In this document: positions 8,239-40,072 of the stretch, one piece after another | Numbering within the stretch: position 1 is the first letter of the stretch | Layout: each line of letters starts with the position of its first letter | Source of the DNA: a virus | Length of the DNA: 64,000 nucleotides | Virus record (IMG/VR): IMGVR_UViG_3300021959_010405 | Span: 1-64,000 of that record | Strand: one strand, 5' to 3' | Notes under the pieces: model-generated | Database searches by the model: none | What the model was told of the DNA's origin: nothing | What the model saw: only the letters and a program-made list of their open reading frames with translations | Translations under genes and position numbers: made by a program

Positions 8239-8260
8239 TAGTATAGATTACTATACTACA

Positions 8261-8266
8261 TAAATA
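8261..8266 (+). promoter_or_regulatory. Late promoter core
   Basis: TAAATA-TATTT-ATG(8272), preceded by a 9-bp hairpin at 8238-8259. Confidence 0.7.
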
Positions 8267-11274: not shown

Positions 11275-11792
11275 TGAAAACGTATACAGTCTCAATTACC
11301 GGTAACACATCTACTCTCGAGAGTTTAGTATATTATGACGAGATTGCGGTAAAGGGCGATGTTGAATTTACATTTGATTTAACAGGCCTTGAAGTAAATC
11401 TTAATAATATATTAAGAATAGATATAGATTATGGGGATAGTAGTGATATAGAGAGATTCTCATATGATGTTGGGGTTGACCACGAGACTAAGCCTATAAC
11501 ATATGAAATAGCATTATATGGCGCTTACAGACCTGAATCAATTTTTAAACATGTTTATAGACCTCTAAATAGCACATACTTCTCTCAATTGACTGCTAGT
11601 ATATTATTGCAGTATGGTAATTTTGACCATTCAAAAATTATAATACCTATAAAAATAGCTCAACACTCTTATTACGATGTATTAGGGTCAATTAATGTAT
11701 TAGATACACAAATTATATCAACTACTGCTAGTGATATTTTTTGTGTGGTTGAAGATGAAGACGGAGATATAATAAACTTAGTTTTGTCATAA
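11274..11792 (+). CDS. Virion structural protein
   Basis: 172-aa ORF coupled (TAATG) to the upstream gene; IDYGD PKD-like motif. Confidence 0.55.
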   Translation: MKTYTVSITGNTSTLESLVYYDEIAVKGDVEFTFDLTGLEVNLNNILRIDIDYGDSSDIERFSYDVGVDHETKPITYEIALYGAYRPESIFKHVYRPLNSTYFSQLTASILLQYGNFDHSKIIIPIKIAQHSYYDVLGSINVLDTQIISTTASDIFCVVEDEDGDIINLVLS

Positions 11793-11802
11793 ATATATAA
11801 TA

Positions 11803-15159: not shown

Positions 15160-15179
15160 TAGTTTCATAAATATACAAA

Positions 15180-33102: not shown

Positions 33103-33156
33103 AATATTATTTAATATAAATGCAAGAGAAATACTAAATAATGCATAAATATTATT

Positions 33157-36049: not shown

Positions 36050-36346
36050 TTAGTCGTCGTGGCTAGCTCTCCATATGAGATCTTCCCACTTATTAAGGAG
36101 TTCACCCATCACAACTTGAATCTCTTCAAAGTCGCCATCATAGTTAAGTCCTGGGCCACCGCGGGTTTTATTGATATGTTTATTTAAATTGGATCCCTTT
36201 CTTAATACATTTGAAAGAGCGTCCACCGCCCTAGTAACATCATCTACCGACATATTGTTTAAGGCTTCGGCAAGGATTTTAAGCTTATACTCTTTAGCGC
36301 TTATTTTTTTATAATTTTCAAAAATTATTTTTGATTCATTATTCAT
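36050..36346 (-). CDS. Small late protein with MNNESKIIFENYKK leader
   Basis: TAAATA-ATATT-ATG; leader shared with 36394-36786 and 50922-51644. Confidence 0.7.
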   Translation of the reverse strand: MNNESKIIFENYKKISAKEYKLKILAEALNNMSVDDVTRAVDALSNVLRKGSNLNKHINKTRGGPGLNYDGDFEEIQVVMGELLNKWEDLIWRASHDD

Positions 36347-36393: not shown

Positions 36394-36786
36394 TTAAGCA
36401 TCGGCCATGCCTTGGCCTGCCATATCCATCCAGAGATGGTAAGCAAAAGTACCCTCTTCGTGAGGGTTGTTACCTTCAAGACCACCAGGCTTTGGGAGAT
36501 GGTATCCCATACCAGCGTCATAACCAAGACCGTATGCGCCGATAAAATCTTTGTGGTCGCGAGCAATCTTGTCAAACATCGCAAACTGCTTAAGGTCAAG
36601 CGGTTTCATACTTTGGTCAAAATCCTCTTTAGTTGCACTGATCCTCTTTGAATTGTCGAGAAGTTCCTGCATACCTTCTTCGTCAGTAGGGACTTCAATC
36701 GTAGACTCGGTAATGCCTTCAATCTTAGTCTCTTTATTGTTTATTTTTTTGTAATTTTCGAAAATTAATTCTGAGTCTTTATTCAT
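36394..36786 (-). CDS. Small late protein with MNKDSELIFENYKK leader
   Basis: TAAATA-ATGTT-ATG; acidic body. Confidence 0.7.
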   Translation of the reverse strand: MNKDSELIFENYKKINNKETKIEGITESTIEVPTDEEGMQELLDNSKRISATKEDFDQSMKPLDLKQFAMFDKIARDHKDFIGAYGLGYDAGMGYHLPKPGGLEGNNPHEEGTFAYHLWMDMAGQGMADA

Positions 36787-36856: not shown

Positions 36857-37237
36857 TTAATATATTCCGATCTCCTTAAGACCTTCTTCAATTTTGCTCT
36901 TGATAAAACTCTCTCCAACACCAGGATTGCGGCGAGCGATATCCCGAGTCTCGCTTTCGACAAAGTGAACAATGGACTCAACCGGAGCGTCGCCAGATTC
37001 AACAATTTCTGCTAGACTCTCAACTACGGACTCGATCTCGTTTTTAAGATCTTCGTTCATATCATATTTTTCTCTAATTTCAACAATACCTTTGCGAATA
37101 AAAGCTCCGGACTGAGGATCGATCCAATGAGCTTCAACAACAACCTTATCAGGAAGGTCGTTTTCAACTAATCTAGGAGCGACTGGTTGACCGCTTATAG
37201 GGGAAGGTATATTTACAGGTCGTACAAACTGATTCAT
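36857..37237 (-). CDS. Hypothetical late protein
   Basis: TAAATA-AGTGT-ATG; 126 aa. Confidence 0.65.
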   Translation of the reverse strand: MNQFVRPVNIPSPISGQPVAPRLVENDLPDKVVVEAHWIDPQSGAFIRKGIVEIREKYDMNEDLKNEIESVVESLAEIVESGDAPVESIVHFVESETRDIARRNPGVGESFIKSKIEEGLKEIGIY

Positions 37238-37285
37238 ACACTTATTTATGTAAAACTATGCAAATAACTTACTAATTTGGAGAAG

Positions 37286-39058
37286 TTAACGCCGACGACG
37301 ACCACGCCTTCTAGTCTCGTCATCAATATTCGGGTCCGAATCATTTAGCTTCTTTGGGCTCTTACCAGGATTGCTCGAGTCAACCCCGTCGTAGTTGTTA
37401 CCATGACCGTTATTTTGTTTAAGAGCTGCATCTTCCTCGTCAGTCAAATTTCTAGAGCAATCAATCGAGCCGACGTCAGTCTCAACCTCCTCATAAAAAC
37501 TGACCAGAAATGCTAGATCTTGAAGATCGAACCCACTGCTACTTACATCCGTATGGGTCAACTCGACCAAGTAAATCACATCCCTCGAGCCGATCTTTAT
37601 CCTACCTTCCGAATCGAGAAATGGCAGAAGGAAGGACTCGATCGAGGGCTGCTGATACAGGGGCGTTGTTGTCGGAGGGACATCACCATTCCGAAGGGCC
37701 CTTACATTTTGTGAAACCGAGCGGGAGTCGAACGTTGAACTCCAATACCCGTCATGGCGTACGTAGCGTCCACTGAAATCGAGAGTGTCTCCGCTAGCCA
37801 ACTTTGTCGACCAAACAATCTTGTTTGGATTAATACGATCATTCGTATCAAAGAAAAAGCTTTTTGAGGAACCTCCATTCTGACTCACCCTTCCTTGCGT
37901 AGGTACCCATTCCCAGTGAACAACTTTATCACGCCAATTCTTCCAAACTCTCTTAACAGAGGCGCCAAGTACCCTAACATCAGCGAAGACGCAACGATCA
38001 GCTCGGACCGTTCCTGTATTTTCAATGGACACAATATCCGAAACAGCCTCAGGAACAGTAACATTCCACGATAGTGTTGGGTGAGTACCCGCTTGAACTT
38101 GAGTCGGGCTAGCAATCAATGTACCAACGGGGATGATCGGAGATTCTTCCTGTCCCAACATTAAAGCTGGTACTGCTGTCAGCATAATGAATATTAAGGC
38201 AAATAATTTACTAATAGTATTATTTAAAACGCTTTTCATAAAGAAAACGTCATGCCATTTACTTTCTTGCTTAAGAATACCGTTAAGATTAAATTTTTCG
38301 CAGATATTTTTAAACGTCTTGAAGTTAGGCTCAAATTCTGCATCAGGAATCTGACTATCATAAAACTTATACTCATCTACCCACATCTCATTGTGACTAT
38401 TATCTAGATCAATAAGCTCTCTATTTTTATCAACAATATCTTGTTGTTCTTGTGTCAGTATCTTTTCTCCTTTGATAATAGCAAGAGCTCTTTTATTACC
38501 AAACCCCTCTACGCCTTCAATATTGTCTGACTTATCACCAACAATACACTTATACTCACAAAATCTATTCGGATGCATGCCATATTTCTCATACATTGTG
38601 GGAATATCAAACAATATCTTTTTAATTGGTGAAAATACTTTAGTTTCTGCAGAAACTAATTGTAAAAGATCTGTATCCGCAGAAATAATGACATTCTCGC
38701 CTGGAAGCTTTTTTGATAGCCAGAAAATAATATCATCTGCTTCACCTCTCTTAGGATATACATTAATAATACCTAGTGACTCAAATAGATTCTCAATAAC
38801 ACTGGTAAGTTCATGGACCTGCGCATTATATTCATTATCTCTTGTTTCCTTATACACAGAATCACCTTCCTTTCTGAAAGCTACCTCTGAACTCTTACGC
38901 ATATCCCATGCGCAGTATATCTTTGTTGGTTCAAACTTTTCTACATAGGATTTAATAGATGTCAACACAATAGAGAGGTGATTTACACCACCCCTACTAT
39001 TTGATACCCAGTAGGCTCTATGTACAAGATTATTACCGTCAATTATTAGATTTTTCAT
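37286..39058 (-). CDS. rnh: T4-type RNase H (5'-3' exonuclease) fused in frame to a secreted-type domain
   Basis: LIIDGNN, CAWD, YKETR, EADD, SADTDLLQL, GDKSDNIEGVEGFG. No stop before a hydrophobic segment and a ~285-aa unrelated domain. Start set at MKNLIID (39058). Confidence 0.85.
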   Translation of the reverse strand: MKNLIIDGNNLVHRAYWVSNSRGGVNHLSIVLTSIKSYVEKFEPTKIYCAWDMRKSSEVAFRKEGDSVYKETRDNEYNAQVHELTSVIENLFESLGIINVYPKRGEADDIIFWLSKKLPGENVIISADTDLLQLVSAETKVFSPIKKILFDIPTMYEKYGMHPNRFCEYKCIVGDKSDNIEGVEGFGNKRALAIIKGEKILTQEQQDIVDKNRELIDLDNSHNEMWVDEYKFYDSQIPDAEFEPNFKTFKNICEKFNLNGILKQESKWHDVFFMKSVLNNTISKLFALIFIMLTAVPALMLGQEESPIIPVGTLIASPTQVQAGTHPTLSWNVTVPEAVSDIVSIENTGTVRADRCVFADVRVLGASVKRVWKNWRDKVVHWEWVPTQGRVSQNGGSSKSFFFDTNDRINPNKIVWSTKLASGDTLDFSGRYVRHDGYWSSTFDSRSVSQNVRALRNGDVPPTTTPLYQQPSIESFLLPFLDSEGRIKIGSRDVIYLVELTHTDVSSSGFDLQDLAFLVSFYEEVETDVGSIDCSRNLTDEEDAALKQNNGHGNNYDGVDSSNPGKSPKKLNDSDPNIDDETRRRGRRRR

Positions 39059-39296
39059 TTTTGTCGTATTGTTTTTTTGATACTTTATAGACATATCTTG
39101 GAACTCTTTCAACCATATTAACGATGCCAGATTCTATACCATCGTCAAATGTTTTACAGTCGATTGTTCTATTTTCCATTAATGGTATCGATAAAAAATT
39201 ATATTGAGGTTCCTTTTTTTCTTTTCCACAATATATCCACATTTCACCAGCATAACTACCAGTTTCAATTGCGTATATTTCTCTTTCTTTTGGCAT
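39039..39296 (-). CDS. Hypothetical protein
   Basis: 85-aa ORF in a tightly packed operon. Confidence 0.6.
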   Translation of the reverse strand: MPKEREIYAIETGSYAGEMWIYCGKEKKEPQYNFLSIPLMENRTIDCKTFDDGIESGIVNMVERVPRYVYKVSKKQYDKNEKSNN

Positions 39297-39717: not shown

Positions 39718-40072
39718 TAGATATATTTATATCAGAACCCTTAAAAAATCGACTTTTATCAGACGCAGATTGCTTGACCCCCGATGTAATGAGTTTTTCA
39801 ACGATAATTTCTATTGATGATGTCTTTAGCATAGTGTTTTTTGCAAACAATTTGCCCCCATCGTCGAAATGAAATACTACCTCGCCTTTAACGAATGGGT
39901 CATTCATACAAGTAATAAATAAGCTCGTGTCTCCAGGATCGACCAATATAGTCCATCTCCTAGGATCGTCTTTTTTATAGTCTTGGAAGATTCTTAAAAC
40001 AATAAAGTCATTGTCTCTAAGACGCTTTATGAAATATCCGGGCGTATAAATTTTGTTTTTTGTATTTTTCAT
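39689..40072 (-). CDS. Hypothetical protein
   Basis: 127-aa ORF coupled to gp45. Confidence 0.6.
   Translation of the reverse strand: MKNTKNKIYTPGYFIKRLRDNDFIVLRIFQDYKKDDPRRWTILVDPGDTSLFITCMNDPFVKGEVVFHFDDGGKLFAKNTMLKTSSIEIIVEKLITSGVKQSASDKSRFFKGSDINISNGGSEPQET

Follow-up and report, generated by a model that had tools for sequence, protein, structure and literature searches.

Capture of a Verrucomicrobiales gene at the stop codon of a T4-like phage flap endonuclease: a fused reading frame with a lectin-like distal domain

Can a replication nuclease of a bacterial virus be continued, in one and the same reading frame, into a domain of the exported type, and if so, how did such a gene arise and what does it produce? 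The question was raised by an open reading frame (ORF) in IMG/VR virus record IMGVR_UViG_3300021959_010405, of which positions 1 to 64,000 were analyzed here; this stretch, 'the window', is a part of a 117-kb record with T4-like gene content, ∼55% complete. The ORF, P0001 (590 aa; 37286..39058), starts at ATG 39058 and ends with TAA at 37286-37288; it lies on the minus strand, as do all of its parts described below. Alternative upstream in-frame starts, TTG or ATG, would extend the product to 608 or 602 aa. An intact 5′-3′ exonuclease is followed by a hydrophobic segment and then by a distal domain of 288 aa.

The initial annotation, made for 38150-39058, had noted that no stop separates the nuclease from the segment after it, and offered three explanations: a membrane-anchored nuclease with a periplasmic domain, a nested internal start giving two products, or a stop codon lost by mutation or assembly error. 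The absence of a stop was borne out, with the frame being read through ...KWHDVFF-MKSVLNNTISKLFALIFIMLTAVPALMLG-QEES... to the end of the 590-aa ORF. The span proposed at that time does cover the nuclease and the join; the exported-type part runs on to 37286.

We established the ORF itself, its origin, its persistence, and the selection acting on its distal domain as well as the fold of that domain. As for the product, we consider it likely (with a probability of roughly 60%) that gene capture at the nuclease stop gave a fused chain which is inserted in the N-in/C-out orientation, with its lectin-like domain exported.

The nuclease half and the join

Residues 1-264 (38267..39058) form the body of a 5′-3′ exonuclease, or flap endonuclease, modelled by AlphaFold2 (AF2) with a predicted local distance difference test score (pLDDT) of ∼90. 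A match to PF02739 (5_3_exonuc_N) covered residues 4-160 with 86.6 bits (cut-off 34.3), and phrog_107, an exonuclease family, was matched with an E-value of 5e-35. When aligned with Taq Pol I, the protein was seen to retain every acidic metal ligand of the 5′ nuclease (D7, D52, E106, D108, D109, D128, D130, D175 and D178), and the motif GDKSDN was placed against GDESDN of Taq; the T5 flap nuclease could be aligned as well. The H3TH domain, PF01367, scored 34.7 bits against a cut-off of 40, with positions 2-39 of the 97 profile positions covered; the two profile matches together fall within residues 1-273. PF02739 and the acidic ligands, next to the partial, sub-threshold PF01367 match, relate the protein to free-standing 5′-3′ exonucleases (the Pol I 5′ nuclease domain, T5 D15 and the enzyme of the T4-like rnh slot); as in the T4-like rnh slot, the fused gene comes after the sliding clamp gene and three small genes. 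Relatives of the fused protein, however, measure 285-300 aa, with the stop right behind ...LFA or ...LFSx, whereas the fused chain is 303 residues longer. It was the sole PF02739 match in the 117-kb record.

Where the nuclease should have ended is seen from its unfused relatives. In each of five syntenic ones (L002-L006; 50-53% identity), the clamp gene is followed by three small genes, the nuclease and the next gene; the five nucleases stop at residue 288 with the ending ...IKSVMANIISELFSx, and the next gene follows within ∼20 nt of the nuclease stop. Four closer relatives, P0158, P0157, P0159 and P0160 (88, 84, 68 and 65% identity), end with ...FFMKS.LN.TISKLFA or a close variant, i.e. with ...KLFA-stop; thus, all nine nearest relatives stop at 287/288. 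Scans of viral contigs with P0157 and P0159 gave nothing beyond the known relatives at 50% identity. As the unfused relatives share this ending, MKSVLNNTISKLFA is the C-terminal tail of the nuclease itself; residues 265-287 (...KWHDVFFMKSVLNNTISKLFA; 38198..38266) are modelled as a helix and correspond to the tails of the relatives. Since the closest of them end with ...KLFA-stop, the native stop stood at codon 288 (38195-38197), which now reads TTA. Thus, a chain of 590 aa stands in place of a soluble nuclease of ∼285-300 aa ending at the tail helix. The initial annotation had singled out the right codon, observing that GCC TTA ATA is one base away from GCC TAA; the cause of the change, though, was an insertion of ∼0.9 kb of foreign DNA and not an error.

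Such a junction could come from a chimeric phage/host assembly, or from a one-base sequencing error erasing a stop. The sharp step in GC content at the join would fit a chimera, and so would the presence, in the same samples, of the host gene and of copies from other phages (seen as loose ends at 37283 and as more variation over 37283-38181). However, the flanks of the insert are both phage DNA in exact synteny with the relatives, and separate assemblies yielded the same protein: the exact 590-aa sequence was recorded on four ENA contigs (the longest of 118 kb) and a 602-aa call of the same ORF on five JGI contigs. Diverged variants retained the join as well. P0128, a 590-aa variant from another JGI contig, carries 27 substitutions, of which 8 fall in the nuclease, 4 in the join and 15 in the distal part; a fragment, P0004, has this join too. 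Moreover, two contigs of ∼1.5 kb each, from unrelated sequencing runs, bridge the join with 0 gaps: one from run X9 (2024) over 37455-39002 and one from run X14 (2020) over 37910-39200. Near 38150-38260 there was no indel; the sole change listed there, 38249 G>A, turns GAC into the synonymous GAT. In 18 studies of 2018-2025 (estuary, marine, seawater), there were runs containing no less than half of the words sampled from 37700-38700. An artefact is therefore extremely improbable, and the join is a genuine, lineage-specific gene fusion.

Accordingly, assembly error as the cause of the lost stop can be dropped. No indel restoring a stop, the first observation that had been named as speaking against the fusion, was found in the contigs spanning the join. 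The second was to be two separate genes in relatives; these do not have the two side by side, the distal gene being absent from relatives of the nuclease and located at other places in other phages.

On one contig of run X14, representing a related copy of the tail region, the frame is shifted across three codons, by an insertion (+1) at 37417 that a deletion (-1) at 37425 compensates. In RNA run X19, 12% of the sampled words were present, with no contig placed over the region. Scans of metagenome contigs gave no confirmed locus, and a collection of phage GenBank entries gave no match at the DNA or protein level.

Origin of the distal half

Between codon 293 and a point 3 nt behind the stop (38181 to 37283), the sequence is 85-86% identical at the nucleotide level, and 87-89% at the amino acid level, to standalone gene copies. 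These were of two kinds: (i) a 312-aa gene in contigs of other T4-like phages (L009-L013); (ii) a 326-aa gene in metagenome-assembled genomes (MAGs) of Verrucomicrobiales (L014, L015, L017, the latter being a 984-kb contig, and P0137). Homology to these donors is confined to 38181..37283. At 37248, immediately ahead of the late-promoter-like motif CATAAATA (37243..37250) of the next gene (36857-37237), homology to the unfused phage relatives sets in again. The insert of ∼0.9 kb is thus gene-only; it starts within the signal peptide of the donor and ends 3-8 nt past the stop.

The two parts of the ORF differ in composition: GC content is 0.29-0.36 along the nuclease and 0.46-0.49 along the distal part (0.336 versus 0.476 overall). 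The gene is absent from the syntenic relatives and is placed between conserved neighbours, as expected for an insertion; its foreign origin is indicated by the composition, by close cellular homologues (the best with 89% amino acid identity) and by the nesting of the phage copies among host copies. A 'moron', as usually defined, would bring its own promoter and terminator; no such motif was found within the captured DNA.

Between the two homologies lie codons 288-292 (LIFIM; 38183..38197), which are AT-rich and a poor match to nuclease relatives and donors alike. AAATTATT (K-L-F) occurs at the same position in the tail of the nuclease and in the standalone copy of phages, possibly a microhomology used in the crossover. 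The register of the signal peptide is the same in the window, in the phage standalone copies and in the host copies, with 19 residues from the last basic residue to the G/Q site. Standalone copies share with the fused one this register, the LMLG/QEES site and the C-terminal tail; they differ in being separate genes with a start codon and an n-region of their own, and the bacterial copy heads a six-gene operon.

The family of the captured gene has at least 385 members, of which those with a named source are almost all from Verrucomicrobiales; it is encoded in 213 species-level Verrucomicrobiales genomes or loci, and each of 61 aligned members has its own N-terminal signal peptide. In the protein tree, three fused sequences form a clade (support 100/98) inside the group of phage standalone copies (90/87), which is itself placed among the copies of host MAGs. 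GC content at third codon positions falls stepwise, from 0.58 in the host copies to 0.49-0.50 in the standalone phage copies and 0.45 in the fused copies, with 0.275 in the phage nuclease; this stepwise fall suggests a host-to-phage capture with slow amelioration afterwards. Verrucomicrobiales are, judging from these comparisons, the probable host lineage of the phage.

On contig L010 (3998-4936; also on L009 and L011-L013, all with a GC content of 0.42), the standalone 312-aa ORF has a rebuilt n-region (MNNKNKLF...). A putative Hsp20-like gene precedes it; behind it are an opposite-strand gene of 267 aa and then the DNA polymerase gene. The captured gene occupies different slots in other phages and therefore circulates among phages, which suggests that it was picked up repeatedly or passed from phage to phage.

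Fold, family and selection of the distal domain

Sequence searches alone said little about the distal domain (P0002). No family was found for it in Pfam or NCBIfam, and none in Pfam beyond chance in 61 family members; a sequence-profile search of PDB gave nothing relevant. An AF2 model built from 61 homologues had a pLDDT of 79.6, with values above 90 for the greater part of residues 70-190 and 201-230, and it was a β-sandwich. The best match among solved structures was LecB/PA-IIL (1gzt_A; Z 10.0, root-mean-square deviation 2.9 Å, 112 of 114 residues), followed by the LecB-like thrombocorticin (7f91; Z 7.4) and by C2 and TNF-like folds (Z 5-6). Foldseek listed BclA and LecB at E-values of 4e-3 to 8e-2. 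A fold search of BFVD gave nothing below an E-value of 0.009, and the ESM Atlas gave only hypothetical clusters of Verrucomicrobiota with a sub-threshold match to DUF4114; the latter appeared as a weak BFVD match too, and both are just leads. We conclude that the domain, according to the model, has the PA-IIL β-sandwich fold (P0002 73-251, i.e. P0001 346-524; 37487..38023), with sugar and calcium binding being putative.

Residues invariant in the family form the pattern E-L-T-H-T ... G-x-D-L-Q-D, which we take to be reminiscent of the calcium loop of LecB. E226, D238, Q240 and D241 (P0002 numbering), all invariant, are predicted candidates for a two-calcium sugar site. In comparison with LecB/PA-IIL, the calcium-dependent fucose lectin of Pseudomonas aeruginosa, the distal domain matches in its modelled β-sandwich, but it is larger, owing to an additional sub-domain at the N-terminus plus a long charged tail, and has no match at sequence level.

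That C-terminal tail (37289..37477; NNGHGNNxDGVDSSNPG ... DPxxDDE ... RGRRRR) is predicted to be disordered. It is present in about two-thirds of the sampled family members, is missing from the shorter ones of ∼245 aa, and has a weak match to phrog_23810. The idea that it may be a general sorting signal was ruled out, as the tail is family-specific, occurring in one or two proteins per host genome.

The bacterial homologue of the captured gene leads a conserved set of six genes, present in 51-52 of the 52 fully flanked loci of Verrucomicrobiales (an example is L017:4938-10747; the other loci are among L016-L091). Its members code for the secreted LecB-like protein, for proteins of ∼220 aa and ∼340 aa (the latter secreted), for a pair of small proteins whose N-termini are of the prepilin type (sub-threshold N_methyl/GFxxxE matches) and for one of ∼660 aa; none of them had a Pfam or NCBIfam family above cut-off. 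This set is an undescribed pseudopilus-linked system.

For the mature distal region, the ratio of non-synonymous to synonymous substitution rates (dN/dS) was 0.07 against every other copy, at dS of 0.67-0.75; in a three-point split, the window's own branch had dS of ∼0.45 and dN/dS of ∼0.08. These values indicate strong purifying selection on the distal domain.

The combination of halves is rare. An exhaustive phmmer search with the 590-aa query against 1.84 billion cluster representatives gave 15812 hits; the best 150 of these were all of at most 371 aa and matched one half only, none of them matching both. A word-index search for homologues of the distal domain longer than 555 aa gave none, although it was a weak search that missed the window's own protein too.

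The signal-like segment and the product of the fused gene

The hydrophobic segment (residues 285-302, LFALIFIMLTAVPALMLG; 38153..38206) is of the signal-peptide-like or anchor type and internal to the chain. The Kyte-Doolittle mean in a 19-residue window was 2.15 at 285-303; the runner-up in the protein was 0.87, and the best window in the unfused relatives did not exceed 1.2. Such hydrophobicity is beyond chance. A basic n-region (K275, K284) is followed by an h-region, LFALIFIMLTAV-P-ALML, with a mean of 2.6 over 15 residues. The c-region has Gly at -1, an atypical Met at -3 and a helix-breaking Pro at -6, the same as in the standalone copies. As the segment with its n-region begins at residue 274, it would be N-terminal only if translation started at ATG 38239. 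In spite of four changes in 29 residues, the variants keep the join hydrophobic, with Kyte-Doolittle means of 2.15 and 2.25. The AF2 model of the full-length chain, reliable for residues 1-290 only, has a single continuous helix at 265-295.

Any start codon of the donor lies upstream of where the captured DNA begins. Within the ORF there is no YATAAATA motif, the nearest being at 39724-39731 and 37243-37250, and sigma-70-like matches on this strand were at chance level (11 versus 6.9 ± 2.9 expected). M292 was rejected as a start codon, being Ala in P0128. With captured DNA devoid of start and promoter, and with M292 not conserved, expression of the distal domain depends on sequence derived from the nuclease, i.e. 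on the nuclease start or M274; and, as no stop intervenes, every ribosome translating the nuclease must go on into the foreign domain.

In the window as a whole, ORF starts have no Shine-Dalgarno motif and have AT-rich leaders. Many ORFs have (C/T)ATAAATA 5-12 nt ahead of the ATG (8259-8266, 11788-11795, 15166-15173, 33144-33151, 37243-37250), a placement that suggests very short leaders transcribed from T4-type late promoters; the bare count of the motif, 25 versus 28.7 by chance, shows that the signal is in position and not in number. Two small minus-strand ORFs, 36050-36346 and 36394-36786, start with a near-identical leader, MN(N/K)(E/D)S(K/E)(I/L)IFENYKKI, and then diverge.

According to the reading that we prefer, a secreted-protein gene of Verrucomicrobiales, deprived of promoter and start, landed exactly at the stop of the flap endonuclease (the 'rnh' position of T4-like genomes). 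The captured copy was cut inside its own signal peptide, and the join rebuilt a full-length signal-peptide-like segment: the native nuclease tail (...MKSVLNNTISK) supplies the positive charge of the n-region, LFA with the join codons LIFIM the start of the h-region, and the donor what remains of the h-region together with the c-region (LTAVPALMLG/QEES). Emerging behind the folded 284-residue cytoplasmic nuclease, the segment could enter the Sec pathway, acting as an internal signal or as an anchor, with K275 and K284 before it and QEES after it pointing to the N-in/C-out orientation. The LecB-like domain would then get to the periplasm or envelope, where the host homologues would work, and the nuclease would be held on the cytoplasmic face; because the tail helix runs straight into the hydrophobic segment, it would be located directly at the membrane.

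Signal peptidase I may cut at G302/Q303 (between 38153 and 38152), the presumed site in the standalone homologues; cleavage would free the lectin-like domain and leave a tail-anchored nuclease. Internalised signal sequences have been processed in E. coli. We put cleaved and uncleaved chains at near even odds, with cleavage slightly ahead, because flanks can make a signal an anchor, as seen in an endoplasmic reticulum system where flank changes convert a cleaved signal (PMC2115504), yet viral polyproteins are cut by signal peptidase at internal signals, e.g. at NTB-VPg of tomato ringspot virus (PMC5010249). One could speculate further that a single ORF gives two working proteins by means of the host signal peptidase I: a released lectin-like protein targeting the pseudopilus-linked surface system and a tail-anchored flap endonuclease; in this strong form the proposal is tentative and, on balance, doubtful. 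The role of the captured domain could be interference with the host pseudopilus-linked surface system or use of it.

Several points weigh against this reading. A folded domain of 284 residues before a cleavable signal peptide is unusual, and so is the Met at -3 of the proposed cleavage site; there is no linker from the nuclease fold to the hydrophobic segment, and insertion might disturb the enzyme. With the record ∼55% complete, a second nuclease gene may be present elsewhere. The low dN/dS comes partly from the branches of the donors, and on the window branch a part of it may predate the fusion; the fusion is also limited to one narrow lineage (∼95% identity), which does not imply long-term selection for the fused state itself. 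Finally, we infer export, topology, cleavage and biological role from sequence.

The main competing possibility is that of nested translation: a start at ATG 38239 would give a 317-aa precursor as the main source of the exported protein, the fusion being a by-product. M274 (ATG 38237-38239) is located inside the native nuclease tail, and M274-K275...K284 with the h-region would make a canonical 29-residue signal peptide (MKSVLNNTISK...LMLG/Q) in the length class of the standalone copies. All fused variants retain M274 with a basic residue at 275 (K275R in P0128), and a U-rich sequence is situated just upstream; since the phage genes do without Shine-Dalgarno motifs, the lack of one here is not counter-evidence. 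However, M274 occurs in unfused relatives (P0157, P0158, P0159, P0162; 54-88% identity), and so do the next 13 residues (P0157, P0159, P0162), while more distant relatives have Ile or Leu at residue 274; the codon is, by this comparison, ancestral and bears no sign of selection as a start. A fusion-specific new start was dropped from consideration, as the residue is Ile in five distant relatives and Met in the four closest. Furthermore, neither a late-promoter motif nor a convincing sigma-70-like site is present ahead of M274, and initiation within an ORF under translation is usually inefficient. We consider the nested start unlikely, though not negligibly so. Less likely still is a tolerated accident, in which the 590-aa chain is made with its distal part left unexported or without a role, the host Pol I nuclease covering for a handicapped enzyme. 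The confinement to one narrow lineage, the failure to find another match to both halves, and a captured piece having no promoter, start or terminator would all agree with it, and rnh of T4 is dispensable. An accident would hardly account for dN/dS of ∼0.07-0.08 in the distal domain at dS of ∼0.7, for a frame kept open across 288 codons in three diverged variants, for a join that stays hydrophobic through its substitutions, or for a lineage found across sequencing runs of numerous studies (2018-2025). Thus, among the three explanations offered initially, the membrane-anchored nuclease with a periplasmic domain is best supported, with the conserved ORF being real and the topology predicted.

Phages are known to capture genes, and gene fusions and bitopic proteins are familiar as well. 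The predicted layout (a cytoplasmic domain, one hydrophobic segment, an exported domain) is similar to that of bitopic N-in/C-out regulators of the ToxR/CadC type and of PknB-type kinases; these, as well as eukaryotic viral polyproteins, are evolved or eukaryotic, whereas here the layout, as predicted, arose by an insertion accident in a replication enzyme of a bacterial virus. New are the pairing of a replication nuclease with a lectin-like domain predicted to be exported, a working-looking signal segment born from an enzyme tail and a truncated donor signal, and the uncharacterised host family of the captured gene.

This is a traceable case of a start-less fragment of a host gene made into an expressed phage gene by borrowing the end of a gene of essential type. 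If export and cleavage do take place, the bacterial Sec system and signal peptidase would process in nature an internal signal behind a folded domain of 284 residues, and a replication nuclease would tolerate tethering to the membrane; if two proteins are indeed made, the gene would be a bacterial-virus counterpart of the eukaryotic viral polyproteins processed by signal peptidase, observed soon after its birth by capture. The 85% nucleotide identity to genes of Verrucomicrobiales MAGs gives a concrete host assignment for an uncultured lineage of T4-like estuarine and marine phages, and the LecB-like head protein of the Verrucomicrobiales pseudopilin operon becomes a candidate for a receptor-related or exclusion-related factor.

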